64,000 bases of DNA from Escherichia coli (lineage in GTDB: Bacteria > Pseudomonadota > Gammaproteobacteria > Enterobacterales > Enterobacteriaceae): assembly GCF_013122565.1 (NCBI RefSeq), contig NZ_CP053258.1; one strand, written 5' to 3'. The notes beneath the pieces were generated by a model that was not told the origin of the DNA, searched no databases, and saw only the letters and a list, made by a program, of their open reading frames with translations. The position numbers and the translations under genes are program-made. This document shows, one piece after another, positions 8,450 to 54,273 of this stretch (position 1 is its first letter; the number at the start of each line of letters is the position of its first letter).

Positions 8450-9244
8450 TTATTGACCATTGTCGCCTTCGCGGGTTAGCCACCAGGCCCCCAGGATCGG
8501 CAAGGTTGTTACCAACATAACCAGCAGTGCCACCACGTTGGTTACCGGTACATCACGCGGTCGCCCAAGCTGATTGAGCAACCACAACGGTAACGTTCGT
8601 TCATGACCTGCCGTAAAGGTCGTAACGATGATTTCATCGAACGACAAGGCAAACGCCAGCATTCCTCCTGCCAGTAGCGCCGAACTGAGATTCGGCAACA
8701 CTACGTAGCGGAAGGTTTGCCAGCCATTGGCCCCAAGATCCATTGACGCCTCAACCAGATTCCACGAGGTGCGGCGAAAACGGGCGATGACATTGTTAAA
8801 CACCACCACTACGCAAAAAGTCGCATGACCGACCACGATGGTGAAAAATCCCGGCTCCAGATTGATGGTTTTAAAAGCGGTTAATAGCGCCAGACCAGTG
8901 ACAATGCCCGGCAGCGCAATGGGCAGCAGCAGTAACAGCGAAATGGCGTTTTTGCCGAAAAAGTCTCGTCGCCACAGCGCGGCAGCTGCCAGCGTCCCTA
9001 ACACCAGCGCGATTAATGTCGCCAGCGCTGCCACTTTAAGTGACAGTGTCACTGCATCAAGAATATCACTACGCTGTGCTGCCACGCTAAACCAGCGCAG
9101 CGTCAGGCCTTGCGGTGGAAAACTAAACGCCGCATCTTCAGTGTTAAACGCATAGGCGGCGATAATCAGGATGGGAAAATGTAGGAAAACCACGCCGCCC
9201 CAGGCCGCCAGTTTGAGGAAAAACGGTGCGCGTTCAGAGTGCAT
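8450..9244 (-). CDS. ydcV: ABC transporter permease YdcV (polyamine-type, PotC-like)
   Basis: 264-aa polytopic membrane ORF with the ABC permease EAA-like loop ([20 protein letters not shown]). Confidence 0.85.
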
Positions 9245-12596: not shown

Positions 12597-14003
12597 TTAC
12601 AGCCGTTCTTGAATAAGTTTGCCTAATTGTTTTACCGCCTGTTCTTCACGTTCTCCCCACTGCCACGCGGTATTAAAACGAAAAAAACGTGACCAGTTTT
12701 CACCGGTAGAAAACATTTTACCCGGCGCAATACTGATATGATGCGTCAGTGCCGCCAGGCTTAATTCGCCGGCATCTAACGGCTCGGGGAGCTCCAGCCA
12801 GAGAAAATAACCGCTGTCATTATGATGAATTTTCACTTCCGCAGGCAGATAACGCAGCAGTGCCTGCCAGGCACGTTGTTTACGTTCCGCAAGCTGGCGA
12901 CGCAGGCGACGAAGATGGGCGTCGTATCGGCGCGTGGAAAGGTAATCCACCAGCGCAAGCTGCATCGGTGAGCTGGTGGAAAGCGTACTCATCAACTGCA
13001 ATCGTTGAATTTTACGTGCATGTTTTCCGGCGGCGACCCAACCAATACGAAAACCAGGCACCAGACATTTCGAAAACGAAGAGCAATGCAAAACGCCATC
13101 GTGGCGATCCCACGCTTTCGCAGGCAGCGGTTTTTCCCGTCCAAAATAAAGTTCGCTGTAAACGTCATCTTCAATCAGCGTTACGTTGTACTGATTGAGC
13201 AACGCCACCAGTTGTGCTTTTTTTTGTGGCGTTAAGGTAAATCCGAGTGGATTCTGGCTATTAGTCATCAGCCAGCACGCTTTCACCGGATACTCCTGCA
13301 ACGCCAGTTCCAGCGCCTGAAGATCGATCCCTTCTTTAACATCCGTCGCCACCGATAACGCCTTCAGCCGTAGCCGCTCCAGCGCCTGCAACGCGCCGTA
13401 GAAACAAGGATTCTCTACTATCACCCAATCGCCCGGTTCAGTTACCGCTTGCAAACTGAGGTTTAATGCCTCTAACGCCCCGGCAGTAATGACAATTTCA
13501 TCAGGAGAAATGGTGATGCCCTGTAAGGCATAGCGACGGGCAATAGCCTGACGCAGTTCTGCGTTTCCTGGCGGCAAGTTTTCAATCACGCTCATCGCCG
13601 TGGCGGTTTTGCTTACCTGCGCCAGCGAGCGGTTTAGTTGTTGGAGGGGGAAAAGTCGCGGGTCGGGAAAGGCCGAGGCAAACGGAACTACCGACGGATC
13701 GCGACTGGCCTGCAACATATCAAAAATATAGGTGTTGATATCGACTGCTTCATCTCGAGTGACTGGAATGACTGGCGCTTTCGGCATTTTTATTGCCTGT
13801 GGCGCAACGTAATAACCCGACTGCGGTCGCGCGATAATATGTCCCTGACTTTCGAGCAACTGATAGGCATGGCTGACAGTCATAAAGCTCATGCCAGAAA
13901 GCGCCACCTGGTCACGCAACGAAGGCAAACGATCGCCGGATTGCCAGATACCAGACGCAATCTGTTCGCGTAATTGTTCTGCAAGCTGCTGATATTTTTT
14001 CAT
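12597..14003 (-). CDS. ydcR: MocR/GabR-type regulator YdcR (GntR HTH fused to a PLP aminotransferase-like domain)
   Basis: 468-aa ORF; N-terminal wHTH region, long aminotransferase-fold C-terminus containing SFSKCLVPGFRIGW (PLP-lysine region). Confidence 0.85.
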   Translation of the reverse strand: MKKYQQLAEQLREQIASGIWQSGDRLPSLRDQVALSGMSFMTVSHAYQLLESQGHIIARPQSGYYVAPQAIKMPKAPVIPVTRDEAVDINTYIFDMLQASRDPSVVPFASAFPDPRLFPLQQLNRSLAQVSKTATAMSVIENLPPGNAELRQAIARRYALQGITISPDEIVITAGALEALNLSLQAVTEPGDWVIVENPCFYGALQALERLRLKALSVATDVKEGIDLQALELALQEYPVKACWLMTNSQNPLGFTLTPQKKAQLVALLNQYNVTLIEDDVYSELYFGREKPLPAKAWDRHDGVLHCSSFSKCLVPGFRIGWVAAGKHARKIQRLQLMSTLSTSSPMQLALVDYLSTRRYDAHLRRLRRQLAERKQRAWQALLRYLPAEVKIHHNDSGYFLWLELPEPLDAGELSLAALTHHISIAPGKMFSTGENWSRFFRFNTAWQWGEREEQAVKQLGKLIQERL

Positions 14004-35288: not shown

Positions 35289-38200
35289 TTAACCGCTAAT
35301 CTGCTCCATCGCCTGCAAAATACGCTTATCTGAAATCGGATAAGGTGTACCGAGTTGTTGGGCAAAATAGCTGACGCGCAGCTCTTCTATCATCCAGCGG
35401 ATCTCTTTCACGCCTTCATCCTCACGACGTGCGGGCGGGAGTTTGTTGATCCATTGCTGCCACGCCTGCTGGACGTTTTCGACTTTCAGCATCTGTGCAC
35501 GGTCGCGATGTGGATCAATCGCCAGTTTTTCCAGTCGTTTTTCAATCGCCTGCAAATATCGCAGCGTGTCGCCCAGCCGTTTGAAGCCGTTACCAGTCAC
35601 AAAACCGCGATACACCAACCCGCCCATCTGCGCTTTAATGTCAGAAAGCCCCAGCGCCATGGTCATATCCACCCGCCCTTTCAGACGTTTGTTGATATTG
35701 AACACCGCCGTAAGGATTTGCTCGACCTGCTTCGCAATATCCACCACCGTGTCATTCAGTTCGGCGCGCACTTTTTCATGCAGCGCAGCAAAGCCTTCTT
35801 CCGTCCAGACCGGGCCACCATTGGCGTCGATCAGTTGATCCACACCGCAGGAGATACAGTCGTCTATCAACTCCAGCACTTTGCCATACGGGTTAAAGTA
35901 CAGCCCCAGCTTGGCTTTGTTTGGTAACTTCTCATGCAAATACTTGATCGGCGATGGAATATTTAGCAGCAGTAGCCGGCGAAGACCGTTCCACATTGCC
36001 TGCTTTTGCTCCAGCGGGTTATCAAACAGTTTGATCGCCACACTGTCGCGCTCATCCACCAGCGCCGGCCACGCCTTCACTTTGTAGTTGCCGCGCTTCT
36101 GCTCGTAGCTTTCCGGCAGTTGCCCAAAACTCCAGATATGTAAGCCGCTCTGCTCGATACCGTCATCCGCCACCGCAGACAGCGTTTCCTGCACTTTGCC
36201 TTTCAGCGCATCTTTCAGATCTTGTAGCGAGCGCCCTTCTTTTAGCTTCTTGTTTTTGTCATCCACCACGCGGAAGGTGATTTTCAGGTGATCGGGCACC
36301 TGATCCCAGTGCCAGTCTTCGCGGTCAACGGTAACGCCGGTCATCCGCCGTAACTCGCGCTCAAGGCTGTCGAGCAACGGTAACTCCAGCGGTTTGACGC
36401 GGCCTAAAAACGCTTCGGCATAGTTTGGCGCAGGTACAAAATTACGGCGTACCGGTTTCGGCAACGATTTAATCAGAGCAATCACCAGTTCGCGGCGCAG
36501 ACCAGGGATCTGCCATTCAAACCCGCTTTCCTCAACCTGGTTAAGTAACGGCAGCGGAATATGTACGGTCACACCGTCCGCGTCCGCGCCTGGCTCAAAC
36601 TGATAGCTCAAACGCAGCTTGAGATTGCCCTGATGCCAGAAGTTCGGGTAATCCAGCTTGCTGATCTTTTCCGCCCCTTCTTTGATCAACATGCTCTTTT
36701 CAAAGTTGAGCAAATCAGGCGTTTCGCGGCTGACTTTTTTCCACCAGCTGTCGAAGTGACGAGCGGAGATTACATCGTGGCTGATGCGCTGGTCGTAGAA
36801 CTCAAACAGCGTTTCGTCATCAACCAGAATATCGCGGCGACGTGATTTGTGTTCAAGCTCTTCCACTTCGGCCCGCAGTTTCAGGTTTTCACGGAAGAAT
36901 GCGTGACGCGTCTGCCAGTCACCTTCCACCAGCGCGTGGCGAATAAAGAGTTCACGACATAACGCCGGATCGATCTGGCTGTAGTTGACCTTGCGCGCGG
37001 CAACAATCGGCAAACCATAAACGGTGACTTTTTCCGTTGCCATCACCGCGCCCTGCGCCCGTTCCCAGTGCGGTTCGCTGTAGGTACGTTTAATCAAATG
37101 CTGAGCGACGGGTTCCACCCATTCTGGATCGATGCGTGCCGCAATACGTCCCCACAGGCGGCTGGTTTCTACCAGTTCCGCCACCATTACCCATTTCGGC
37201 GGTTTTTTGAATAAACCTGAACCGGGGAAGATGGAGAAACGCGCGTTACGTGCGCCGGTATATTCTTGTTTATCGGCATCTTTCATGCCGATATGGGAAA
37301 GCAAACCCGTCAGCAACGCAATGTGAATTTCGCGATACTCCGCCGGTTCGCTGTTAACCGGAATGCCAAGCTCTTTCACCACCTGGCGCAACTGGGTGTA
37401 GATATCCTGCCATTCGCGCACGCGCAGATAGTTGAGATAATCGGTACGACACAGGCGACGGAAGGCGTTAGAAGAAAGCGCCTTTTGCTGCTCGCCAAGA
37501 TAATTCCACAGATTTACAAACGCGAGGAAGTCGGATTCTTTGTCGTGGAAGCGACGATGTTTTTCGTCCGATGCCTGCTGTTTGTCCATCGGACGTTCGC
37601 GCGGATCCTGAATGGAGAGCGCGGACGTGATAATCATCGCCTCACGCACGCAGCCATGTTTTTGCGCTTCCAGCACCATACGCGCCAGACGAGGGTCGAC
37701 AGGCAACTGCGAGAGCTGGCGACCGAGCGGCGTCAGTTTATAGGCGCTGGCCTGTTCATCAGTGGTGATCGCGCCCAGCTCTTCGAGCAGACGCACGCCA
37801 TCCTGGATATTGCGTTTATCCGGTGCTTCGACAAACGGGAACGCAGCGATATCGCCCAGCCCCAGCGCGGTCATCTGCAAAATAACCGAGGCCAGGTTGG
37901 TACGCAGAATCTCCGGATCGGTAAACTCCGGGCGCGAGAGGAAATCGTCTTCGGAATAGAGACGAATACAGATCCCTTCGGACACACGACCACAGCGGCC
38001 TTTACGCTGATTGGCAGACGCCTGGGAAATCGGCTCAATCGGCAAACGCTGCACTTTGGTGCGATAGCTGTAGCGGCTGATACGTGCTGTACCGGGGTCG
38101 ATAACGTATTTAATCCCCGGTACGGTCAGCGAGGTTTCCGCGACGTTGGTCGCCAGCACAATGCGTCGCCCGCTGTGCGACTGGAACACCCTATTTTGTT

Positions 38201-39191
38201 CGCTGTTCGAAAGCCGCGCATAAAGCGGCAAGATTTCGGTATGGCGTAAGTTCAGCTTGTTCAGCGCATCGGCGGTATCGCGGATTTCCCGCTCGCCGCT
38301 CATAAAGATCAGAATGTCGCCAGGGCTTTCCTGACTCAGTTCGTCTACGGCGTCAAAAATCGCCTGCAACTGATCGCGCTCGGTGTCATCGGCTTCTTCA
38401 ACTATCGGGCGATAGCGCACTTCCACCGGATAGGTCCGACCGGAGACTTCGATAATCGGCGCATTATTAAAGTGGCGCGAAAAGCGTTCCGGGTCGATAG
38501 TCGCGGAAGTGATAATGATTTTTAGGTCAGGACGCCGCGGCAGCAACTCTTTCAAATAGCCGAGCAGGAAATCGATATTCAGGCTACGTTCGTGCGCTTC
38601 GTCAATAATGATGGTGTCGTACTGCATCAGCAGGCGGTCTTGCTGGATCTCCGCCAGCAGGATACCGTCGGTCATCAGCTTGACCATCGTGTTATCACTT
38701 ACGTGATCGCTGAAACGCACTTTGTAACCGATGCAACCGCCCGGCTCCGTTTTCAGCTCTTCCGCAATACGGTTCGCCACTGTTCGTGCCGCCAGACGAC
38801 GCGGCTGGGTATGGCCGATCAGCCCTTTAATCCCACGCCCCAGTTCCATACAGATTTTCGGTAGCTGAGTCGTTTTACCGGAACCCGTTTCCCCCGCGAC
38901 GATCACTACCTGGTGGTCACGAATCGCTTCGAGTATGTCCTGCTTTTTCTGACTAACCGGCAAATTGTCCGGATAGGTAATTTCTGGTCGTGCCGCTTCA
39001 CGCAGCAGGACTTTTCCTGCCGCCTGGTCAATCTCTTTCGCCATCTCCTGGAAAATGGCCTGTTGTGCATCAGGATTTTTAACCTTCTTAACACCGTGCA
39101 GACGGCGAGAAAAACGCAGTCTGTCACGCAGCATCAGCGAATCCAGCCGCTGCTGCAAGGCAGTAAAGGTCAATTTTTGTTGTTCTGTCAT
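35289..39191 (-). CDS. hrpA: ATP-dependent RNA helicase HrpA (DEAH-box)
   Basis: 1300-aa ORF with Walker A GETGSGKTTQLP, DEAH box IIIDEAHERS and helicase C-terminal motifs. Confidence 0.92.
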   Translation of the reverse strand: MTEQQKLTFTALQQRLDSLMLRDRLRFSRRLHGVKKVKNPDAQQAIFQEMAKEIDQAAGKVLLREAARPEITYPDNLPVSQKKQDILEAIRDHQVVIVAGETGSGKTTQLPKICMELGRGIKGLIGHTQPRRLAARTVANRIAEELKTEPGGCIGYKVRFSDHVSDNTMVKLMTDGILLAEIQQDRLLMQYDTIIIDEAHERSLNIDFLLGYLKELLPRRPDLKIIITSATIDPERFSRHFNNAPIIEVSGRTYPVEVRYRPIVEEADDTERDQLQAIFDAVDELSQESPGDILIFMSGEREIRDTADALNKLNLRHTEILPLYARLSNSEQNRVFQSHSGRRIVLATNVAETSLTVPGIKYVIDPGTARISRYSYRTKVQRLPIEPISQASANQRKGRCGRVSEGICIRLYSEDDFLSRPEFTDPEILRTNLASVILQMTALGLGDIAAFPFVEAPDKRNIQDGVRLLEELGAITTDEQASAYKLTPLGRQLSQLPVDPRLARMVLEAQKHGCVREAMIITSALSIQDPRERPMDKQQASDEKHRRFHDKESDFLAFVNLWNYLGEQQKALSSNAFRRLCRTDYLNYLRVREWQDIYTQLRQVVKELGIPVNSEPAEYREIHIALLTGLLSHIGMKDADKQEYTGARNARFSIFPGSGLFKKPPKWVMVAELVETSRLWGRIAARIDPEWVEPVAQHLIKRTYSEPHWERAQGAVMATEKVTVYGLPIVAARKVNYSQIDPALCRELFIRHALVEGDWQTRHAFFRENLKLRAEVEELEHKSRRRDILVDDETLFEFYDQRISHDVISARHFDSWWKKVSRETPDLLNFEKSMLIKEGAEKISKLDYPNFWHQGNLKLRLSYQFEPGADADGVTVHIPLPLLNQVEESGFEWQIPGLRRELVIALIKSLPKPVRRNFVPAPNYAEAFLGRVKPLELPLLDSLERELRRMTGVTVDREDWHWDQVPDHLKITFRVVDDKNKKLKEGRSLQDLKDALKGKVQETLSAVADDGIEQSGLHIWSFGQLPESYEQKRGNYKVKAWPALVDERDSVAIKLFDNPLEQKQAMWNGLRRLLLLNIPSPIKYLHEKLPNKAKLGLYFNPYGKVLELIDDCISCGVDQLIDANGGPVWTEEGFAALHEKVRAELNDTVVDIAKQVEQILTAVFNINKRLKGRVDMTMALGLSDIKAQMGGLVYRGFVTGNGFKRLGDTLRYLQAIEKRLEKLAIDPHRDRAQMLKVENVQQAWQQWINKLPPARREDEGVKEIRWMIEELRVSYFAQQLGTPYPISDKRILQAMEQISG

Positions 39192-39382: not shown

Positions 39383-39997
<615 letters not shown>

Positions 39998-40047: not shown

Positions 40048-43111
<3,064 letters not shown>

Positions 43112-43126
43112 TTTCTCTATTTTCCT

Positions 43127-44023
43127 TCAGTAACAGCAGTAGCGAATAAAATAAAAAAATACCGGAGCGGTGAAAATTAATGAGTCAATCCTGTCAAGGA
43201 GTCCGCCATGTCCTGGTAATAGTTTTCCACTATCTTTAACACCAATATCTCGTTTGATGGCTGACATCACTACATCGCCGCAAAAACCACTAATACCAAT
43301 TAACAAACCCGCTAATATTGCCTGTAATGTATTTAGCGGTGTCAGTAACGGTCCAATGATCATCGACGCTATCATGGTGGTGATTACGCCGCCGACCAGA
43401 CCTTCCAGCGTTTTTCCAGGGCTGACTTTGGGGACCACTTTTCTTCTGCCGCAGGATTTCCCCCATAAATACTGTGCAATATCGTTTGACTCGGTTAATG
43501 CCAAAAGAAATAACACCAGTAAGGCCCCGCCCTGGATATTTATGGATGGCAACATTAATAACCAGGCGGCATGACTCAAGGCGAAAACGGTCATTATCCA
43601 GCCCCAAAAAATGGCGCTCACGGTACGCAGAAAACCGGAGGGGTCACCCACAAAAACTCGCCAGGTGGCTAATATCAGAAACCCAGCCAAAGGTATAAAT
43701 AACAGAAACAGCTCAAAGCAATTAAAACCGATAAGCAAATAGTTAAGAGGAATAACCCAATATAACCACCGCGGAAAATGTACAGATATAAGCGTACAAT
43801 ATTCTTTCAATGCCAGAAAACTTATCAGCGCAAAAAACGTCAACGTCATCCAGCGTGGACCTGAAATCACCAGTGAAAAACAAATGACGATACCCCACCA
43901 GGTACGAATACGTAATGTAACTTCATCCCCTTTTCTCTCCGGTAACCGCCATACCAGAAAACGGTTTATCAGCGTTGCTAAAATTAACAACGCGAAAAGT
44001 GTTGCCAGAGACTTTTCCAGCAT
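43127..44023 (-). CDS. ynbB: YnbB, CDP-diglyceride synthase (CdsA) family membrane protein
   Basis: ORF 43127..44059 trimmed to the MLEKSLATLFALLIL start (298 aa); the C-terminal region resembles the cytidylyltransferase signature. Confidence 0.75.
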   Translation of the reverse strand: MLEKSLATLFALLILATLINRFLVWRLPERKGDEVTLRIRTWWGIVICFSLVISGPRWMTLTFFALISFLALKEYCTLISVHFPRWLYWVIPLNYLLIGFNCFELFLLFIPLAGFLILATWRVFVGDPSGFLRTVSAIFWGWIMTVFALSHAAWLLMLPSINIQGGALLVLFLLALTESNDIAQYLWGKSCGRRKVVPKVSPGKTLEGLVGGVITTMIASMIIGPLLTPLNTLQAILAGLLIGISGFCGDVVMSAIKRDIGVKDSGKLLPGHGGLLDRIDSLIFTAPVFFYFIRYCCY

Positions 44024-44628
44024 TATCTTACAGCGCTCATAAGAAGCACACTCCGACAACGATTAATCGCAGTCCAGATAAGCAGAATTGAAGCAATGCT
44101 CCATAAAAGATTATTCCATTGCATCCACTGTGGATAAATGGCAACGGTCAGACCCCACAGACCAAATAATAACGCGCGATCGCTTTTGCCAAATGGACCG
44201 GCATAACTGCGAACACCGTTAATCGTCTGCGCGAGTAAACCACAATACTCGGTCAATATGGTGCAAAATAACATGAGTATCACGAGTGATGCGTTACTTT
44301 CCGGTAAAAATAAAAATGGTAAATAGAGCGCAATATCGGAAATAACATCGCCAGTCTCATTCAAAATCGCCCCCAGACGTGTTTGCTGGTTGCACTCACG
44401 CGCCAACATGCCATCCAGCGCATTGAGCGCCATACGGATAAAAAGCACGATGGGCAATAGCAAAAAGAGGATGGGTTGTGCCGCCAACATCAACAGCAAT
44501 CCGGTAAGAAGAGAAAGCGCCAGTGCATCAAGAGTGATGTGATTCGCTGTAACGTGGTGCTTATAAAGCCAAAACATCGTCGGCCTTAACAGCGACTGAA
44601 AGAGCGGTTTTATCTGGTAGAGCGTCAT
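44023..44628 (-). CDS. ynbA: YnbA, CDP-alcohol phosphatidyltransferase family membrane protein
   Basis: About 201 aa; contains the CDP-alcohol phosphatidyltransferase motif region (DGMLARECNQQTRLGAILNETGDVISD); its stop overlaps the ynbB start by 1 nt. Confidence 0.75.
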   Translation of the reverse strand: MTLYQIKPLFQSLLRPTMFWLYKHHVTANHITLDALALSLLTGLLLMLAAQPILFLLLPIVLFIRMALNALDGMLARECNQQTRLGAILNETGDVISDIALYLPFLFLPESNASLVILMLFCTILTEYCGLLAQTINGVRSYAGPFGKSDRALLFGLWGLTVAIYPQWMQWNNLLWSIASILLIWTAINRCRSVLLMSAVR

Positions 44629-44798
44629 TATCAATCCTTGATAATTCGGTTTGCGCTATGGTGCATCAATTCCCCTGACGGAGATATCGCAACACGCCGC
44701 TTCATTAAAAATTCAGAATATATCAAGGTATTGGGGACTCACCGTCAGGAATGATTATCCCCAATAAATCAAGTGGTTAAAAATTATTACGCTGTTAT

Positions 44799-47105
44799 TC
44801 AATACAACTCATCAAGTTTTCTCATCGCTTGTTCCCGTATTGCGCGCGTCTTACCGTTAAGCGCCAGCTGCCGAACTAAATCCAGTTCAGGGTTAACAAG
44901 CTCTAACGCCAGCAAAGGATCACGTTTCAGCCTCGCCTTTAATACATCAACTGGAAAACGGGGATTATTCATCGCCACAATCCACCACTCGGGATCAATT
45001 TCTGCCGCCAGTACTGCAGGCGGTGTGTGGCGGTTGTTAAGTGCGCCGAACTTGAAAAATGTGAGATTGCTTTTCGCCAGTGTACTCCACCATATACGAT
45101 CCGGTTGTTTTGCCAGTACATCCAGTTGTGCTAACGCATCGGGGTCTAGTGCATAATAAACACGTAACGCTTCGTTAACCTGCGCACGGGAACTGTTTTC
45201 CTGCCTCAGAAAAAACTTCGCCCAAATATCATTGCGTGGCGTGTTTTGCTGTAATTCCTTGAGAACAACAGCGGGTAAATTATCCCAACTAATTAATGCA
45301 CTCTCTAAAAAGTCCCAGTCGTCCGAACGTATCAGAGAGGTGGCATTTAATAGCATCTGGTCATCAACTTCACCGTAGCTGATAAGCTCAGACAAAATCA
45401 TATCAGCGCTGGTTTCATATGCAGCTGAATCTGCTTTGGGATTATTTTTCCGATGCGATAAAGCACGTTGCCAAATTTTTTGTTTCATTGACGTGCTCAG
45501 ATACTGATTTTTCGCCAGATTACTCCACCCCTCAGGATCGTTGAAACGTGTCAATAACCGTTGTAAAGCAGCGTCAGAGTGAATTACCTGCATATCCCGA
45601 CAGCAAAAGTAGGCAGGGGATTTTTTCTCCATCCTTTTAACAAAATTAAACTGTAAGTTATCTGGCAATGCTAAAAATAACACACGTATTAGATCATCGT
45701 CATTCTCGAATTTTTGGTATAAATATACTGCTATTTTGTCACTCTCTTGTGGCGTCATCCGCAACAATTGACCATGGTGTTTCATCTCTGCCAGCTTTGA
45801 CGCTAAGCTTGTGACAACATCGTTTGATGAATCGTTCGCCAACTGCATTGCCTGATTGTAGGTGAGTTGTCCTCCAGCACCGACCTGACGAATAGAGGAA
45901 TCATCACTGCGGATATAGCCATCAATAATGGATTCGGGCAATAACCACGCATCTTTATAAAGCTCCTGAATGATCATATCCCAATCTCTTTTCGCCAGAG
46001 TCATGACGATATCCAGAGGGAGATTTTCACGTAGCGCAAGATTCAACGGACCGACACCATCAGGTAGATGACTCATTCGCGTCATTATTTCGACAGAGAG
46101 CGGTTCACGGTCGAGCAACCCCAGAACAACAGGCTGGTAACCCAATTGCTGATCGGTCAACTCCAGAATCTCATTGTCAGGCATATATCTCGCCATACTT
46201 TCAATCGTTTGTCCATCATTGCTATTAATAAGTTGTTTGCGTAGGTTAGCTGAAATTCCTTTAAGCCTTGGGAGAGTTCGCATTATGGCAAGATCAAATG
46301 TCGCAATATCTCGTCCTTCAAATGCAGCAACGTTGCCTTCATCCAGCATTTGCAATTCCTGCACTAACTCAGGAGCAGGCTTAGGGCGAAACAGCGCTTC
46401 TTTTTTCATCAGATTACAGACATTCCCTGCCATGCGAATATTGCTTCGCTTAAAAATTTCTTTCAGAGCATCTTCATCATTTATTAGACCCCAATAATAT
46501 GCATCAGGATTTATTATCATCAGCGCTTTTTTGACATTTTCAGTGTCATTTTTGTCACTCGCACGGACCATGAATTCACTATTTGTCGAAGACGCAACAA
46601 CAGGTGCAATTATGTCATTGATAAATATCCCACGCGCATTAATACTCCCCTTAATTGTAGACGGATTATCGTAATATGAGTCGATAAATACCAGTCCACT
46701 TGCATTTATCGAACCGGTAATTAACAGTGGTGAATCCGTAACTATATTCGTTGCCGTCACGTTACCGAGAATAACCCATGGATTAGAAAGAGAGAAAGTG
46801 GAAATATTACCTTTGACTGTCAAATTGCCAAGAACAATCAATTTTTGATTACTCTCTATATTACCGTCTACCACTAAATCGCCACGATGCACTTTCCAGT
46901 CCGATGCAGATAAACCGAAGGGGACAAGATTCACGCTACTGTTGATAGCTTGTTCAACTTGTTGTTTATCTTCAGCGGTAGCCGCAGAAAAAAATGGTTC
47001 AATATCAACTGCATTTGCAACACATCGAAGGTCCGCCTGTACTGGAAGACTCAGCATAAACAGGGGAAGTAAACCTATCCAGCCGCAAATCCTGGCCTTA
47101 AACAT
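44799..47105 (-). CDS. ydbD: Large uncharacterised secreted protein YdbD (DUF2773)
   Basis: About 768 aa with a signal peptide (ICGWIGLLPLFMLSLPVQA). The start is chosen among MHMFKAR; the first ATG (47111) is also possible. Confidence 0.75.
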   Translation of the reverse strand: MFKARICGWIGLLPLFMLSLPVQADLRCVANAVDIEPFFSAATAEDKQQVEQAINSSVNLVPFGLSASDWKVHRGDLVVDGNIESNQKLIVLGNLTVKGNISTFSLSNPWVILGNVTATNIVTDSPLLITGSINASGLVFIDSYYDNPSTIKGSINARGIFINDIIAPVVASSTNSEFMVRASDKNDTENVKKALMIINPDAYYWGLINDEDALKEIFKRSNIRMAGNVCNLMKKEALFRPKPAPELVQELQMLDEGNVAAFEGRDIATFDLAIMRTLPRLKGISANLRKQLINSNDGQTIESMARYMPDNEILELTDQQLGYQPVVLGLLDREPLSVEIMTRMSHLPDGVGPLNLALRENLPLDIVMTLAKRDWDMIIQELYKDAWLLPESIIDGYIRSDDSSIRQVGAGGQLTYNQAMQLANDSSNDVVTSLASKLAEMKHHGQLLRMTPQESDKIAVYLYQKFENDDDLIRVLFLALPDNLQFNFVKRMEKKSPAYFCCRDMQVIHSDAALQRLLTRFNDPEGWSNLAKNQYLSTSMKQKIWQRALSHRKNNPKADSAAYETSADMILSELISYGEVDDQMLLNATSLIRSDDWDFLESALISWDNLPAVVLKELQQNTPRNDIWAKFFLRQENSSRAQVNEALRVYYALDPDALAQLDVLAKQPDRIWWSTLAKSNLTFFKFGALNNRHTPPAVLAAEIDPEWWIVAMNNPRFPVDVLKARLKRDPLLALELVNPELDLVRQLALNGKTRAIREQAMRKLDELY

Positions 47106-47168
47106 ATGCACTCCATGCCATTAAAAAAGAAACAAAAGGGAAATGCATCTTTCCCTTTTGTATATTCG

Positions 47169-48029
47169 TTATTCTCGCGAAATACCATCCAACGTAGACA
47201 ACACTTCCTCAGAAAGATGCAATTTTTCAGCAGCCATATTCTCCCGTAAATGCGCAACAGAAGACGTCCCTGGGATCAGCAAAATATTCGGTGAACGTTG
47301 TAACAGCCACGCCAGCGCCACCTGCATTGGTGTTGCACCCAGGCTCGCAGCAACATCGGAAAGCGTGGAGGATTGCAGCGGCGTAAAGCCCCCGAGCGGG
47401 AAGAACGGCACGTAGGCAATGCCATCGCGGGCCAAAGCATCAATCATTGCATCATCCGCACGATGAGCAATGTTGTATTCGTTTTGCACACAGACGATTT
47501 CGGTAATCTTACGCGCCTCTGCAACCTGCGTCGGTGTAACGTTGCTCAGACCAATATGTTTCACCAGGCCTTGTTGTTGCATCTCTGCCAGCACTGTCAG
47601 GCTGGCTTCAATCGAGCCTTCCGCTGGGCCATGACCATCCCCCATCATAATGCGCAAGTTAACCACATCCAGTACGTCCAGCCCGAGATTACGTAGATTA
47701 TCGTGCACCGCTTTTTGCAGCTCTGCCGGAGAAAAGGCAGGCAACCAGGATGCGTCCTCTCCACGCCGCGCACCAATTTTAGTGACAATTGTCAGGTCGT
47801 CAGAGTAAGGATAAAGCGCTTCGCGGATAATCTGATTGGTGACGTGCGGACCATAAAAGTCGCTGGTATCAATGTGATTGACGCCCAATGCCAGCGCCTC
47901 ACGCAGCACGGTAATAGCGACGTGGCGATCTCTTGGGGGGCCAAAAACCCCAGGACCTGCCAGTTGCATCGCGCCATAACCGAGACGGTTAACGGATTTT
48001 GTACCGAGAGTAAATGTATTGCTGCTCAT
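47169..48029 (-). CDS. pdxI: Aldo/keto reductase YdbC (pyridoxine 4-dehydrogenase PdxI)
   Basis: 286-aa ORF with the aldo-keto reductase fold (LGYGAMQLAG near the N-terminus, IPGTSSVAHLREN near the C-terminus). Confidence 0.85.
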   Translation of the reverse strand: MSSNTFTLGTKSVNRLGYGAMQLAGPGVFGPPRDRHVAITVLREALALGVNHIDTSDFYGPHVTNQIIREALYPYSDDLTIVTKIGARRGEDASWLPAFSPAELQKAVHDNLRNLGLDVLDVVNLRIMMGDGHGPAEGSIEASLTVLAEMQQQGLVKHIGLSNVTPTQVAEARKITEIVCVQNEYNIAHRADDAMIDALARDGIAYVPFFPLGGFTPLQSSTLSDVAASLGATPMQVALAWLLQRSPNILLIPGTSSVAHLRENMAAEKLHLSEEVLSTLDGISRE

Positions 48030-48237: not shown

Positions 48238-51200
48238 TTAGAACGTTTTCTTGAAGTTCAGCATCACGCCTTTGTCGCTGATGCCGTCCTCTTTCCAGTT
48301 GTACGCATCCAGGTTCAGTGAGCTTTCTTTGCTGCTGTACTTCACGCCGACGCTTGCCAGGCTGTTGATGCCGCCACCCTTCTGACCGTCATCGACGTTA
48401 AAGTGCTGACTGCCTGCGCCTGCCAGGCTTGCCGTGCGCTGGCTCTTCGCGTAGCTCAGATTCGGCCCGCCTTCCAGCGTGGCGCTAGCGCTCCAGCCGT
48501 CTTTACCTGCGTAATCCAGTTTCAACCCGACGATGCTGTCCACCGCCGTTTCGCTGCCACTGTTCATATTCAGGTTAAAGTCTCCGGCATTGCGCTCCTG
48601 ATAGCCACCTTCCAGTGTGTGACGCAGTTTAACACCCGCATATGGCGTAACCTTCAGTCCTTCGCTCGGTTCGAAAGTCTTCGCCCCTTCGCTGCGGAAC
48701 TCCAGGTACTGCTGCTTCACGTCGGTATCAGCCGTTTTGTTTGTGTTGCTAAATGCAATCGAACGGCTGCTGTCAAGGTTGTGAACGTCATAACGCAATG
48801 CGTTATTCCAGTTCATGCCGTTGTCGAAGGACATCTGATGTTTCAGGCCAAAGAACTGGCTGTAGCCGCCGGTTACGCCGTTGTCGCCCGCTTTCTGCGC
48901 ACCATCGCCATCCAGACGCGCAATACCGTATTCCAGGCTCATGCTCTGGCTTTCGCTCAGGTCGATGGTTTTACGCAATGCCAGCATGTCGTACTCGGTA
49001 TTATTACCTAACTCGGCACGCGGATCGCCTTTCGCCACCACGTTGAACGCCAGACCATTGCCCACTTTCGGCGCGGCATCCGCCAGCATACTAAAGCGGT
49101 TGCTTAACACGCGCGCTTCACGGAACACCGTGGTCGCCAGGCTACCGCTGACCTGTTTCAGGGCGCTGTTCAGTTCGGCGGTGGTGCCAACGTTCAGGCT
49201 GGTATACAGCTCGTTGTTGGTGTAACCCGCATCCAGTGCCTTCGCGACGTCATTTACCGAAGCATCGGTTGCGACATCGGTGTAGGCATTTTTGCTCATG
49301 GTAACGTCAACGTTACCGTTGGCATCGGTGCTGCCTTTGGCGTTCCATACGACCGTAGAGGAAACGATGTTGTCCACACCGCTGATGTTTTCGCCTTTGA
49401 ATACATCGTTAACGACAACGGTGGTATCCGCTGTTCCTGCACTAAACCCGGCATTAACACTCACGTTGTCGCCAATCACCAGGTTATTCGCGCTGAGCGT
49501 ACCGGAACTCCCGTCGCTATTGGTACCGATGGTATAGTTGCTCAGCAGTTGCGGCGCATTTGAATCAGCAGGCGGGGTTGGAACATCACCTTGTGACGGC
49601 GTAGTTGATGCGTCTGGTACGGTGATATCCACAGTACCGTTGTGGTCGTTTTGTGTACCCGTTGTTCCAGGAGCATAAATATCGCATCCGGTATCACACA
49701 GCAGGTTAATTTCACCGTTGTTAATGATGGCTTTCGTTTGCCCACCAAACGCCCAGGAATTATCGGCATAGACATTAATCACACCCGTTTGCGTGTTATT
49801 AATTGTTGTTTCCCGACCATTGCCTTTAATACCAATTAAACCTTCGCCATTGGTTCCATCCTGTTGCCCCTGCTCAGTACCCACATTAATGGTGCCACTG
49901 TTCACCAACTGAACAACATAACTGGTTGTGCCGCCACTGATGCCCACCGCATTATCGCCCTGAACATTAATAACGCCAGCGTTAGCAAAGTTATAACCTC
50001 GTCCTAAATCAACCAACGGAGCCGCAGGGTTAATACCATTGATTACCCCTGTTTCTGTGTTCCAGATCCATTTACCTTTACTGTTCGAGCCAGTACTTTC
50101 GGTTTTGATCGCGCTGTAGCCATTTGTAGCCGTAATGGTTCCACGGTTAACCTGAGATACAGAATCCCCGGTTCTGGTTACATGAATAATCGCGTTTTCA
50201 CCGCCCGTTACCGCATTACCACTATTCGTCAGGGTCGCACCCGCTTCGTTGAAGAACAGGAAACTCCCGTTGATGAGTGATTGCCCATCTTCGGTCACCG
50301 TCATTTCACCGGTATTCACTACGTTCTGTTGATAGCTGTTGCCGGTAATTGAACCGCTGAACTCACCTTCGTTAAAGAAGGAAACCGCACCATTCAACGT
50401 AAGGAGATCTGTTGTCATGCTCCCGGTTTCACGGTTATAGATCGTGGTTTTGCTGTTAATACTGTCAACATCCAGGGTCCCACTATTCTCCAACCCTTGA
50501 GTGACACTCAGTTCGCCATTGATGGTCAGACTGGCATCAGGTTGGTTATATAACCAGCCGTTTGCATCAACATTGCCATTAAGCGTTTCATCTCCGTAGT
50601 TTGCCAGGTTATTAACAACGACAAAACCGTCGGTAGTTGTGGTTTTGCTGATGCTCTCCCCGCTACCAGACAACTCGCTAAGAACATCTTTGTCATCCGG
50701 CGTCACCCCCATATGGGAATCACTTTCATCCATTGGATTACCGAAAAGAGTAATTTTTCCGTAGTTGAGAATGGTACCGGTGCTATCTTTATAAAACGCC
50801 TGACCAATATCAGTATTAATATTAATCACACCATCCTGGTCATTAATGGCCAGACCACCTTGAATTGCCCCCATCGCGAACAACTGGTTATCTTGCTGCT
50901 TCGTCACACCCTCATCGGCGGTGAGATTGATCGTTCCCTGGTTGACAACGGTCCCGCCGCTCATCGCCAGCATACCAAAACCTTCGTTATTAACATTGAT
51001 GGTTCCGGTATTTAACCCACTGGCATCGCCATTTCCGATATCGGTTGACCCTACAACAACGCCACCGGACATAAGATAAGGATGGGGTGGTTGCCAGTAG
51101 GATTTACTAATGATATTGCCATCTTCATCAAGTTCGGGAACAAAACCATCGACATTGATTTCCCCGGCATTTGTCGCCGTGCCTTTAGATGCTGCAGCAG

Positions 51201-54200
51201 CATAGTTTCCCGCGCCTTGCAAATTAATGGTGGCGTCAGATTCATTCACTGTGATGCCGTAATCACTGGCCCACAGCCCGTAGTTGACACCGAAATACCA
51301 TTTCAGGGGGGATTCAGACATCCCGCCTGCGTATGCAGGTGTCGTTACAGAGATCAGATTAATAACCCCACCCGACGCATTCGTAACCTGAGAATTCTGG
51401 CCACGAGCACGCATTGTCCCCCCCCTGGAGAATTCCTCACCGCTAGGTTTGACATTAATAATTCCACTATTAGTGATATGTGCACCATTGTTAGCCGTCA
51501 TTAAATCCTGGCTATCCATTGTGTTAATCACACCTTTGTTTTCAACGCTGGACTGACTGCCAATAGCAGAAATAAGCGCACGTTCAAAGAAGAAAAAGTC
51601 GGTTTCCCTGGCTTTACTGGATATATCCGTTACAGCGTTTTCATCAAATATAACTTTTCCACCGTCCGCCACCGAGACCAACGTAAAGGCACCCAATTCC
51701 TGACGGGTATCCATTGTCGAATGACCACTAATGTTAACGGTATTGTCACCAATAACCGATACGCCATCTATAACATGTGCGGCGCTATCACCACTAATAT
51801 TAATACCGCCATCAATATTAACGGTATTCTTCTCGCCAGAAACAATTATGCCACTCACTAAATTTTCCTGGTGTAGCAGCTCCCCTTGTACGGTGATATC
51901 AACATGGCCACTAATATCTACAGTGTTATTTTTACCACTAATCGTTCCACCTGTTAATGCTGTGATTTGTGCATCAGGGTTATCGCCGAGGATGGAATTA
52001 ACATTGATGCTTCCGTCAACGCTAATATGGCTGTCATTACCCGTCAGACTGAAACCTGTAGCACCCGGCGCATTGCCCTCGCTGTCTGGTTGCTGGAATA
52101 CGTTAATATCGCCGCTTAATTGAACCTGTTCACGGTCACCCGCAATGGATACCCCAGTTCCGTACCGTGAAACATCAATTTCGCCCACGTTACCGAAAAC
52201 TTCATCATCACCATCAATCAGAATCCCCACAGAACCGGAATCCGTGACAACAATTTTGCCTTTATTACTTAACTGCGAGTTATTACCGGCAATATCAATA
52301 CCCGTTGCCCCTCCGCTGACGTAGAGGTCACCTTCCTGGCTAATTGTTGCATTGTGACCGGCAACTTTTGTCCCTACTGCATTCGCACCGTCAACCGTCA
52401 TATCCCCGGCGATATTCATCTCATTGCCATCGCCAGTGATGGTTATACCTGTGGCATTTTCACCCAAAATATTAAGATCATAGGTTGCCAGGGTTATACT
52501 ATTGTTGTCGCCGATAATCTCCATGCCAGTCGTATCGTCTTTAACCAGCATTGAGCCAGCAAGAGAAATACTGCTGCTGTCCCCGGTGATTTTTACACCA
52601 GTACCGCTATTTGTTGTGGTGATGTCTCCCACATTGACAAAGGTAGTATTATCACCATTGATTAACACGCCGTAGGGGTTTCCGTCACTGTCCGCCTGAC
52701 CTACATTGATATCACCAATGTTCATAAAGGTTGTTTGATCGCCATCCAGCAATACACCGATGGAAGTATCATCCACCACAGTAACATTACCCTTATTACT
52801 GACGAGAGTACCTTTACCCTCGGCGTCAATACCGTGTGCGCCACCGCTGACGTATAAATCACCCTGTTGCCTTACAATGGCATCTTCGCCGATAATTTTT
52901 GATCCCGTTGAATTTGCACCATCGACGGTCATGTCGCCTTTGATTTCAATGCGGGCATCATCCCCTGTAATCACACTCCCCGTGCCACCATTCGTGATTT
53001 CGACATCACCAACGGTGTTCAACGTAGTACGATCGCCATTGACAATAACGGCCGTACCACCATCGACATCTGTCTCACCATTATTAGTAATGGTGATATC
53101 GTCACCGGTAAGAATACCTACCACCGAACCTTCACCAATCGCGGTAGTTTGACCGTCGTTGTTCAGGGTGATGTCGTTACCGTCAACGTTTATCACAACG
53201 CCGCCATTCAGCGCGATGTTGCCGCCATGGTCGGTAATAGTGGCATCGTTAATATGGAAATGTTCGCCAGTTGTACCGTCTGCGGTGGTGAGTGACTCTA
53301 TGATTATTTCGATTTTTCCCGCTTCGTCATAGCGCCAGGTGGAGGTTCCGCTCGGATTGACGCCATTGAACGAAGCAGTGTTAGCCGCCTCGTCGACTAA
53401 CCAATCCTTTACGATTGTGGTAGTGCCGCCAGGTCCGGTAAGCGTATAGCTGCCATCGTCATTTTTGGTGTAGGTAAAGGTGGTATCACGTAATTTTAGG
53501 GTCTTCGCGTCCTGATCCCAGGTGACATCGTTTTTATAGACCACTGGATCGTGTTTAACTGGCGTGTCATCGCCACCGTCATCCGGGGTGTCATCGCCGC
53601 CATCATCTGGCGGGACGGGGGTGTCGCCGCCATCATCCGGCGGGACTGGTGTGTCGCCGCCATCATCCGGCGGGACTGGTGTATCACCGCCATCATCCGG
53701 CGGGACTGGTGTGTCGCCGCCATCATCCGGCGGGACTGGTGTGTCACCGCCATCATCCGGCGGGACAGGTGTATCACTGCCATCGTCTGGCGGGACTGGC
53801 GTGTCGCCGCCATCATCCGGCGGGATGGGTGTATCACCGCCATCATCCGGCGGGACGGGTGTATCACCGCCATCATCCGGCGGGACTGGCGTGTCGCCGC
53901 CATCATCCGGCGGGACGGGTGTATCACCACCATCATCCGGCGGGACTGGCGTGTCGCCGCCATCATCCGGCACCGGAGACGAATCGTCATGATGATTATT
54001 ATTATCGTGGAGTGCATATACTGCGACACCTGTGACTGCCGCTGCCAGCCCCACTGCAGCCCAGGGTAATAACTCATTATCTTCAACTGATTTACACTCT
54101 GCCGGCAGCTTTTCTAGCTGTTCTTTACTTAGTGATTTAATATTGGCCGGGCAGCTAATCTTGCTGGATTTACGAGATTCATCCGATGTTTCCGCTATCG

Positions 54201-54273
54201 ACGTATCTGCCGCCCATGTCTGGCTGCTTAACGCCATTGCAACACAGACACTGAGCAATTTTTTCCTTTGCAT
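48238..54273 (-). CDS. ydbA: YdbA, giant type Va autotransporter (AIDA-like), intact 2011-aa reading frame
   Basis: Single 6036-nt ORF: signal peptide, Pro/Asp/Gly decapeptide repeat stalk, very long Gly/Thr/Asn-rich beta-helical passenger with pervasive internal repeats, and a C-terminal beta-barrel translocator ending MLNFKKTF. Confidence 0.9.
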   Translation of the reverse strand: MQRKKLLSVCVAMALSSQTWAADTSIAETSDESRKSSKISCPANIKSLSKEQLEKLPAECKSVEDNELLPWAAVGLAAAVTGVAVYALHDNNNHHDDSSPVPDDGGDTPVPPDDGGDTPVPPDDGGDTPVPPDDGGDTPVPPDDGGDTPIPPDDGGDTPVPPDDGSDTPVPPDDGGDTPVPPDDGGDTPVPPDDGGDTPVPPDDGGDTPVPPDDGGDTPVPPDDGGDDTPDDGGDDTPVKHDPVVYKNDVTWDQDAKTLKLRDTTFTYTKNDDGSYTLTGPGGTTTIVKDWLVDEAANTASFNGVNPSGTSTWRYDEAGKIEIIIESLTTADGTTGEHFHINDATITDHGGNIALNGGVVINVDGNDITLNNDGQTTAIGEGSVVGILTGDDITITNNGETDVDGGTAVIVNGDRTTLNTVGDVEITNGGTGSVITGDDARIEIKGDMTVDGANSTGSKIIGEDAIVRQQGDLYVSGGAHGIDAEGKGTLVSNKGNVTVVDDTSIGVLLDGDQTTFMNIGDINVGQADSDGNPYGVLINGDNTTFVNVGDITTTNSGTGVKITGDSSSISLAGSMLVKDDTTGMEIIGDNNSITLATYDLNILGENATGITITGDGNEMNIAGDMTVDGANAVGTKVAGHNATISQEGDLYVSGGATGIDIAGNNSQLSNKGKIVVTDSGSVGILIDGDDEVFGNVGEIDVSRYGTGVSIAGDREQVQLSGDINVFQQPDSEGNAPGATGFSLTGNDSHISVDGSINVNSILGDNPDAQITALTGGTISGKNNTVDISGHVDITVQGELLHQENLVSGIIVSGEKNTVNIDGGINISGDSAAHVIDGVSVIGDNTVNISGHSTMDTRQELGAFTLVSVADGGKVIFDENAVTDISSKARETDFFFFERALISAIGSQSSVENKGVINTMDSQDLMTANNGAHITNSGIINVKPSGEEFSRGGTMRARGQNSQVTNASGGVINLISVTTPAYAGGMSESPLKWYFGVNYGLWASDYGITVNESDATINLQGAGNYAAAASKGTATNAGEINVDGFVPELDEDGNIISKSYWQPPHPYLMSGGVVVGSTDIGNGDASGLNTGTINVNNEGFGMLAMSGGTVVNQGTINLTADEGVTKQQDNQLFAMGAIQGGLAINDQDGVININTDIGQAFYKDSTGTILNYGKITLFGNPMDESDSHMGVTPDDKDVLSELSGSGESISKTTTTDGFVVVNNLANYGDETLNGNVDANGWLYNQPDASLTINGELSVTQGLENSGTLDVDSINSKTTIYNRETGSMTTDLLTLNGAVSFFNEGEFSGSITGNSYQQNVVNTGEMTVTEDGQSLINGSFLFFNEAGATLTNSGNAVTGGENAIIHVTRTGDSVSQVNRGTITATNGYSAIKTESTGSNSKGKWIWNTETGVINGINPAAPLVDLGRGYNFANAGVINVQGDNAVGISGGTTSYVVQLVNSGTINVGTEQGQQDGTNGEGLIGIKGNGRETTINNTQTGVINVYADNSWAFGGQTKAIINNGEINLLCDTGCDIYAPGTTGTQNDHNGTVDITVPDASTTPSQGDVPTPPADSNAPQLLSNYTIGTNSDGSSGTLSANNLVIGDNVSVNAGFSAGTADTTVVVNDVFKGENISGVDNIVSSTVVWNAKGSTDANGNVDVTMSKNAYTDVATDASVNDVAKALDAGYTNNELYTSLNVGTTAELNSALKQVSGSLATTVFREARVLSNRFSMLADAAPKVGNGLAFNVVAKGDPRAELGNNTEYDMLALRKTIDLSESQSMSLEYGIARLDGDGAQKAGDNGVTGGYSQFFGLKHQMSFDNGMNWNNALRYDVHNLDSSRSIAFSNTNKTADTDVKQQYLEFRSEGAKTFEPSEGLKVTPYAGVKLRHTLEGGYQERNAGDFNLNMNSGSETAVDSIVGLKLDYAGKDGWSASATLEGGPNLSYAKSQRTASLAGAGSQHFNVDDGQKGGGINSLASVGVKYSSKESSLNLDAYNWKEDGISDKGVMLNFKKTF
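53565..53975 (-). repeat. About 13 to 14 near-identical 30-bp tandem repeats inside ydbA, encoding PVPPDDGGDT units
   Basis: Directly visible periodicity: (ggtgtcgccgccatcatccggcgggactgg)n with only a few substitutions; in-frame units (PVPPDDGGDT, PIPPDDGGDT, PVPPDDGSDT) at about residues 100 to 240. Confidence 0.9.

Follow-up and report, generated by a model that had tools for sequence, protein, structure and literature searches.

β-Helices and α-solenoids are classic ligand- or protein-binding scaffolds. Among the described systems, the known bactofilins are cytoplasmic and polymerise end to end independently of nucleotide, a further set of β-helices is of the adhesin type, and the LRV/HEAT/ARM scaffolds consist of stacked helical hairpins. 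Here, we analysed ydbD in a window of 64,000 nucleotides (nt) of Escherichia coli DNA (GCF_013122565.1, contig NZ_CP053258.1; orientation reversed relative to K-12), the whole stretch to which the coordinates refer unless another genome is named. This gene is known and already catalogued in K-12 (b1407), its function is uncharacterised, and RefSeq names its product 'DUF2773 domain-containing bactofilin'. We propose, with moderate confidence, that YdbD is a Sec-exported, non-enzymatic envelope repeat protein acting as a periplasmic binding or adaptor protein, and that ydbD is independent of any ancestral unit with its neighbours pdxI and ynbABCD. The evidence for this proposal comprises the open reading frame (ORF), the predicted architecture, a terminator, the gene order and the presence/absence pattern described here, together with a ynbA promoter from the literature.

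The sequence-only reading of this DNA had identified an ORF of roughly 768 amino acids (aa) without giving its strand; the ORF is as described and lies on the minus strand, with 768 codons, its ATG at 47105 and the end of its stop codon at 44799.

44799-47105, minus: ydbD coding sequence, 768 aa plus stop (ORF list; identity to annotated ydbD; K-12 b1407; ratio of nonsynonymous to synonymous substitution rates, dN/dS, 0.18-0.30)
47111-47114, minus: Shine-Dalgarno sequence GGAG, 5 nt upstream of the ydbD ATG (sequence read directly)

An in-frame GTG lies 6 nt 5' of the ATG. At the DNA level the gene shares 99.4% identity with the ydbD annotated in E. coli C8 and 98.0% with K-12 b1407; the protein is 97% identical to that of K-12 across 768 aa, and the gene order pdxI-ydbD-ynbA is common to both. 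K-12 YdbD, of the DUF2773 family, is thus the orthologue, with equal length, equal neighbours and near-identical intergenic regions, and the differences are allelic only.

Predicted architecture and export of YdbD

An AlphaFold2 model of the full-length protein, built from a 43-sequence alignment (mean predicted local distance difference test, pLDDT, 88; predicted template modelling score, pTM, 0.78), and a second AlphaFold model of residues 28-250 (pLDDT 87.9, pTM 0.87) give a high-confidence and well supported prediction that YdbD combines a right-handed β-helix with an LRV/HEAT-type α-solenoid. In the model, residues 1-27 are disordered, residues 28-69 form a small cap with a helix, residues 70-181 consist of short β-strands in a regular series, residues 188-245 are linker helices, and residues 247-768 are helical hairpins throughout. 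Structured segments, namely helix 44-53 on one side and helix 188-197 followed by the 520-aa solenoid on the other, flank the predicted β-helix.

47034-47105, minus: predicted signal peptide, aa 1-24 (MFKARICGWIGLLPLFMLSLPVQA), predicted cleavage after VQA (hydropathy and layout; model pLDDT 30-45; N-termini of relatives)
46563-46898, minus: predicted right-handed β-helix, aa 70-181, the best-conserved module, with the motif H73-x-G75-D76-L77 at its start
46650-46832, minus: region of aa ~92-152 deleted in frame in a natural 711-aa allele (55 residues, about three rungs; BLASTP; domain lengths 168 versus 223 aa)
44802-46367, minus: predicted α-helical solenoid of the LRV/HEAT class, aa 247-768 (pLDDT ~90-97; Foldseek; Pfam matches in the family)
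44802-45044, minus: Pfam DUF2773 (PF10971), aa 688-768, the last solenoid hairpins (Pfam E-value 9e-46; model helices 682-767)

The modelled β-helix has about six rungs without obvious cleft-forming loops and superposes on solved bactofilins at 1.9-2.5 Å. For the solenoid, Foldseek returned the PP2A A subunit, karyopherin-β2 and a designed ARM protein (E-values 5e-5 to 1e-3), stacked helical hairpins like the ~520 residues of YdbD; the characterised examples of this class are mostly cytoplasmic or eukaryotic, whereas YdbD is predicted to be exported. DUF2773 scores 154.3 bits against a cutoff of 25 with full profile coverage, which places YdbD in that family. Among the 43 family members, Pfam repeat models match in 17 (LRV_2), 14 (LRV), 12 (HEAT) and 7 (HEAT_2), and the Pfam scan of E. 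coli YdbD itself gave no match to LRV (PF01816), LRV_2 (PF25591), HEAT (PF02985) or HEAT_2 (PF13646). A self-similarity scan of the solenoid revealed no clear sequence periodicity, and the repeats are therefore too diverged. A search of the PDB with the whole YdbD sequence gave no match, and no solved structure resembling the two modules together was found. The sequence-only reading had described the fold as unknown, which no longer holds: both modules are confidently modelled, the structure prediction and Foldseek search that it proposed yielded a β-helix superposing on bactofilins and a HEAT/ARM-like solenoid, and RefSeq already uses the term bactofilin.

The N-terminus reads MFKARICGWIGLLPLFMLSLPVQA followed by DL, with basic residues K3 and R5, a hydrophobic core and V-Q-A before D25, the layout of a Sec/signal-peptidase-I substrate with small residues at -3 and -1 and no lipobox. 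The core, ICGWIGLLPLFMLSL, has a hydropathy of 2.04 in a 12-residue window and a maximum of 2.31 over 11 residues, and this segment is the sole strongly hydrophobic stretch in the protein. Because signal-like N-termini are also present in 25 of 39 distant full-length relatives, export appears to be a family trait. We suggest that YdbD is exported and its signal peptide cleaved, and the signal peptide noted from the sequence alone is borne out by hydropathy, layout and relatives. A lipoprotein was considered and rejected, there being no L-x-x-C lipobox.

An exhaustive HMMER search found 168 relatives of YdbD, dozens of them full-length (750-820 aa, 21-31% identity); these distant full-length relatives are rare metagenomic proteins. 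A genome-collection scan with a closer alignment recovered only Escherichia orthologues and actinomycete proteins that share the β-helix alone. The β-helix module occurs by itself in short proteins and in Streptomyces and Microbispora proteins, and is fused to ankyrin repeats in a Myxococcales protein. Because of these occurrences in short, Streptomyces and ankyrin-fused Myxococcales proteins, the module behaves as an independent domain; it is covered by no Pfam model and looks like an uncatalogued mobile domain. The in-frame loss of three rungs in the 711-aa E. coli allele is as expected of a modular helix.

Relation of ydbD to pdxI and the ynb operon

The sequence-only reading placed ydbD between ynbABCD and ydbC (now pdxI) on one strand, and the ORF list and annotation agree, all of these genes being on the minus strand. 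It also raised the possibility that they are functionally connected.

47169-48029, minus: pdxI (formerly ydbC), aldo-keto reductase, pyridoxal reductase, upstream neighbour and separate unit (Pfam, NCBIfam, RefSeq, PMC9997740)
47122-47161, minus: pdxI intrinsic terminator, 12-base-pair (bp) stem and 6-nt loop, then TTCTTTTTTA (terminator scan; fold)
44629-44798, minus: ydbD-ynbA intergenic region, 170 nt, with the ynbA promoter and no intrinsic terminator (terminator scan; PMC3950696; 97% identical to K-12)
44729-44766, minus: conserved hairpin just after the ydbD stop (TTGGGGATAATCATTCCTGACGGTGAGTCCCCAA), GC-rich, no U-tract (RNA fold; conserved in K-12; lost in the EC100 deletion)
44713-44720, minus: TATTCTGA, perfect match to the BglJ-RcsB motif core wwTTCykA (motif from PMC3950696; located by script; identical in K-12)
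40048-44628, minus: ynbA-ynbB-ynbC-ynbD, lipid-type operon, downstream neighbour, ancestrally independent of ydbD (domains, annotation, conserved without ydbD elsewhere)

On the upstream side, the product of pdxI is an NADPH-dependent pyridoxal reductase of vitamin B6 salvage (Ito & Downs 2020, as cited in PMC9997740), a cytoplasmic role unrelated to ydbD. A canonical intrinsic terminator (47161-47122) lies directly 3' of the pdxI stop and ends 16 nt before the ydbD ATG (-18.6 kcal/mol, z -3.07), so that the two genes do not form an operon free of intervening terminators. This terminator is conserved in K-12 and retained in a strain from which ydbD is deleted. An Rfam scan of the gaps on both sides of ydbD gave only a far-sub-threshold match, on the terminator hairpin.

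On the downstream side, a promoter-lacZ fusion in K-12 placed a BglJ-RcsB-activated promoter in the cloned region upstream of ynbA, the ynbA start was mapped by 5' rapid amplification of cDNA ends, and activation was abolished by mutating a site centred 65-68 bp upstream (Salscheider et al., PMC3950696); TATTCTGA is probably this published site. The main text of PMC3950696 does not name ydbD among the BglJ-RcsB targets. The scan detected no minus-strand intrinsic terminator between ydbD and ynbA, where the hairpin at 44766-44729 lacks a U-tract and matches no Rfam family. Thus, no terminator precludes a shared transcript of ydbD and ynbA, yet ynbA has its own mapped promoter.

The two loci also have separate distributions. 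YnbC orthologues with 70-78% identity occur in many genera, and a compact array of ynbA, ynbB, an acyltransferase gene, ynbC, ynbD and a small ORF, with neither ydbD nor pdxI, makes up the cluster in Citrobacter, Salmonella bongori and Snodgrassella; in Citrobacter and S. bongori it sits directly between ydbH-ynbE-ydbL and azoR-hrpA. Conversely, seven distant ydbD relatives lie in seven unrelated contexts with no ynb or aldo-keto-reductase homologue nearby, the closest of them (31% identity) being flanked by sprT and a galP-like gene within a block that is otherwise of enterobacterial type. ydbD therefore lacks the conserved adjacency across genera that marks the ynb cluster. Within E. coli we found three configurations, pdxI-ydbD-ynbABCD, pdxI-ynbABCD (EC100) and pdxI-azoR (AH21H052), and matches to ynbABCD but not to ydbD are seen in at least 635 of the complete E. 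coli genomes. In EC100 the terminator, the ribosome-binding site and ydbD codons 1-10 are still present at the junction, and the sequence resumes just upstream of the BglJ-RcsB core, from which it follows that ydbD was deleted and the ynbA promoter spared. E. coli and E. whittamii share the order pdxI-ydbD-ynbABC, and the pair pdxI-ydbD is found in E. albertii as well. The placement of ydbD beside pdxI and the ynb genes is, on well supported grounds, an Escherichia-only accident of gene order rather than a conserved functional unit.

Several observations concern these clusters themselves. The two genes that the Citrobacter-type clusters have in addition to those of E. coli are the PF01553 acyltransferase gene between ynbB and ynbC (7364-8026) and the ~135-aa ORF after ynbD; the corresponding ynbB/ynbC junction of E. 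coli is at 43111-43127 of the window, and because E. coli has neither gene its ynb operon is a reduced version. In EC100, about 106 bp at the deletion junction (8802-8907) give no match to ydbD or to the intergenic sequence of this window. E. whittamii has essentially no ynbD: ~250 bp separate ynbC from azoR (13749-14002), with no tblastn match. The start of ynbD in the window (40048-41436, minus) is ambiguous; its longest ORF is 462 aa, begins at ATG 41436 and overlaps ynbC by 83 nt, whereas the RefSeq versions have 438 aa (C8) and 430 aa (K-12).

An unlikely alternative, given these distributions, is that in Escherichia YdbD is a working partner of ynbABCD, expressed as one read-through unit and handling a lipid or glycolipid product of the ynb genes in the periplasm. 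The shared strand, the 170-nt gap without a terminator, the single AT-rich block formed by ydbD, ynbA and ynbB (43-46% GC) and the synteny in E. coli and E. whittamii fit this idea, as do reported phenotypes. YdbD and YnbB are among six proteins present at less than 1 part per million (ppm) yet fitness-relevant (10.1101/038851); the transposon screen from which ydbD received its 'methylglyoxal' label, as described in papers citing it, also implicated yjjQ-bglJ (Kim et al. 2007, PMID 17846588), the operon of the ynbA activator BglJ; and ydbD is up together with ynbC in the transcriptome of a persister strain. However, the ynb cluster without ydbD in other genera, the ydbD relatives without ynb, the 635 or more E. 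coli genomes with ynbABCD only, the clean EC100 deletion that leaves ynbA-D and their promoter intact, and the separate promoter of ynbA, whose BglJ-RcsB regulation was described in that main text without mention of ydbD, all speak against it, and polarity would account for the shared phenotypes just as well.

In the reading that we favour, transcripts can continue from ydbD into ynbA-D, there being no terminator after ydbD, and the phenotypes of ydbD insertions may partly reflect altered ynb expression; the simplest reading of the screens is that these insertions would act in cis on ynbABCD, the alternative being a genus-specific partnership. The connection raised from the sequence alone is thus largely undone by the pdxI terminator, the ynbA promoter, the separate distribution and the natural deletions, and what survives is possible read-through co-transcription of ydbD with ynbA-D. 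Independent transcription signals are in place at the pdxI terminator and the ynbA promoter, but not as a ydbD-ynbA terminator or a detected ydbD promoter, and ydbD and ynbB share their unusual screen phenotypes.

Beyond these genes, the neighbourhood is as follows.

35289-39191, minus: hrpA
39392-39997, plus: azoR, the sole plus-strand gene among hrpA, azoR, ynb, ydbD, pdxI and ydbA
48238-54273, minus: ydbA, intact autotransporter gene, 2011 aa

The ydbA gene carries about 13 tandem 'PDDGGDTPVP' repeats near the N-terminus of its product. It is intact here and a pseudogene in K-12, where it is split by IS2 and IS30; it is wholly absent in strain C8, in which paaY follows pdxI, and EC100 has a 2360-aa version.

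Catalytic potential, inheritance and the bactofilin label

We also considered that the β-helix might be a small carbohydrate-active or metal-dependent enzyme working on an envelope glycan (peptidoglycan, enterobacterial common antigen, lipopolysaccharide or MPIase), with the solenoid recognising a substrate or partner. Positions conserved across the family are mostly Gly, Leu and Val, and the polar exceptions, H73, D76, D146 and D164, lie on the β-helix. Against this stand its small size of about six rungs with no evident cleft in the model and the loss from E. coli YdbD of family-conserved polar residues (Y to I101, D to T103, N to Y145); moreover, Asp and Asn at β-helix turns are commonly structural. 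No catalytic family was detected by Pfam, which sees DUF2773 only, or by NCBIfam, which sees nothing, and models of anti-phage defence (PADLOC) and phage proteins (PHROGs) gave no match at E<=0.01. The earlier observation that YdbD has no recognisable catalytic motif stands, and we regard an enzymatic function as rather unlikely.

Alternatively, ydbD might be a passenger that arrived by horizontal transfer, is kept silenced, is of little use to E. coli and is gradually disappearing. Its GC content is 43% (40% at third codon positions, GC3), and the AT-rich ydbD-ynbA-ynbB block contrasts with 52-54% GC for pdxI and hrpA, a composition typical of H-NS-silenced acquired DNA and probably in line with the H-NS/BglJ biology in PMC3950696. 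Among 5426 complete E. coli genomes, pdxI is present in 5210 and ydbD in 3990, so that ydbD is missing from 26%. For ydbD, dN/dS is 0.30 in the comparison with K-12 and 0.18 in that with E. whittamii, whereas hrpA has 0.01 and pdxI 0.04-0.06; the ydbD ratio is 10-30 times that of the flanking housekeeping genes. Purifying selection thus maintains ydbD under weak constraint, which agrees with the gene being missing from 26% of genomes and with the existence of truncated, insertion sequence (IS)-disrupted and shortened alleles. The abundance below 1 ppm, these deletion and disrupted alleles, and the failure to find a promoter of its own suit a passenger. However, a dN/dS of 0.18-0.30 still denotes purifying selection, a full-length ORF is kept in ~71% of E. 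coli genomes and the gene is present in three Escherichia species, and phenotypes and σE induction have been reported; we therefore consider a mere passenger improbable.

In E. coli MARGA_4 (NZ_CM169475.1, 2460945-2464451) ydbD is interrupted by the IS5-like ISKpn26, and many ydbD gene calls in the protein database are truncated or chimeric. Divergence around the gene is mosaic (44023-47105 versus flanks): ydbD is 99.4% identical to that of C8, and pdxI and ynbABCD are only 97.6% identical to the best of the 5426 genomes. Synonymous divergence (dS) from K-12 is 0.014 for ynbA, 0.044 for ydbD and 0.10-0.13 for the flanks. Such a pattern points to a recombination tract spanning ydbD-ynbA and to a host lineage with poor representation among complete genomes.

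Finally, the RefSeq name raises the question of whether YdbD is a true polymerising bactofilin, forming a filament in the periplasm or, with an uncleaved N-terminus, on the cytoplasmic side of the membrane, with the solenoid as a recruitment platform. The modelled module does have the right-handed triangular β-helix that defines the bactofilin fold. However, the Pfam Bactofilin model (PF04519), whose cutoff is 27.9 bits, reaches only 18.3 bits, and does so solely in a scan restricted to the N-terminal 240 aa; it gives no match for whole YdbD and none among the 43 family members at E<=0.01, and a search of all PDB sequences with a profile built from 52 N-domain sequences recovers no bactofilin even at E<=10. 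Where bactofilins such as BacA of Caulobacter (2N3D) and that of Thermus (6RIA) have a cytoplasmic N-terminal tail, YdbD has a predicted classical signal peptide that is kept in relatives; it also differs by the fused 520-aa α-solenoid and in having structured segments on either side of the β-helix, an arrangement that would hinder end-to-end polymerisation. In addition, β-helices of adhesins and of two-partner secretion (TPS) domains match YdbD equally well or better by structural score. These include the tapirin C-terminal domain (4WA0/6N2B), the TPS domains of FHA (1RWR) and HxuA (4I84), and Bacteroides 'putative adhesins' (3LJY/3PET/4YGU), at only 8-14% sequence identity; unlike the TPS adhesins, YdbD lacks both a TPS secretion motif and a nearby gene for a partner transporter, and has a plain Sec signal and an α-solenoid tail. 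We therefore describe the modelled module as bactofilin-like in shape and do not class the protein as a bactofilin: the RefSeq label rests on fold resemblance, not on demonstrable family membership, and a true polymerising bactofilin is improbable as well. Very unlikely is the bolder variant in which YdbD and its mostly signal-bearing relatives are the first extracytoplasmic bactofilin-type proteins, with a self-associating β-helix and a solenoid organising the envelope under σE-type stress; if true, bactofilin-like scaffolding would not be confined to the cytoplasm but would reach into the periplasm.

Role of YdbD and its annotations

We favour the working model that YdbD would be exported through its Sec signal peptide and would present a capped right-handed β-helix, with a cross-section as in bactofilins and small β-helical adhesins, followed by a solenoid of ~520 residues. 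Because both modules are classic binding scaffolds, its most likely role would be that of a periplasmic binding or adaptor protein, possibly tied to envelope stress, and neither an enzyme nor a cytoskeletal filament. In Escherichia the AT-rich gene is very weakly expressed and dispensable; it is probably H-NS-silenced and was probably acquired in this lineage adjoining the ynb operon and pdxI and not as part of them. No convincing σ70 or σE consensus promoter is present within 600 nt upstream of ydbD, and its transcription must therefore cross the pdxI terminator; this fits the abundance of YdbD below 1 ppm, and weak leak-through from pdxI is possible. As no promoter of its own is recognisable, ydbD is probably transcribed by leak-through of this terminator or from a weak promoter inside pdxI. 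ydbD is up 3.9-fold on σE overexpression (PMC2731931) and is a target of YciT by ChIP-exo.

Several points weigh against this working model. The σE induction may be indirect, given the lack of a σE promoter in the 600 nt upstream. The structural matches of the solenoid are generic, with template modelling (TM) scores of 0.1-0.3, so that the LRV/HEAT/ARM scaffolds curve differently from YdbD and may not be homologous to it. Capping of the β-helix ends is deduced solely from the model's secondary structure. Fourteen of the 39 distant relatives have no obvious signal peptide, although some of these may have mis-called starts. The four conserved polar residues could form a catalytic or metal site, and the conserved synteny in Escherichia leaves a genus-specific functional link possible.

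Our analysis does not overturn current understanding, the gene and its family having already been catalogued, and it calls for caution in using the 'bactofilin' and 'methylglyoxal' annotations. The only phenotypes of ydbD, minimal-medium fitness and, as relayed by citing papers, methylglyoxal sensitivity, come from insertion mutants upstream of a BglJ-RcsB-controlled operon and may belong to ynbABCD. Apart from this possible cis link to ynbABCD, the misleading guilt-by-association of ydbD with pdxI and the ynb lipid operon is removed, and ydbD, which is among the remaining E. coli genes without a known function, now has a concrete predicted architecture of an exported β-helix joined to an LRV/HEAT solenoid.

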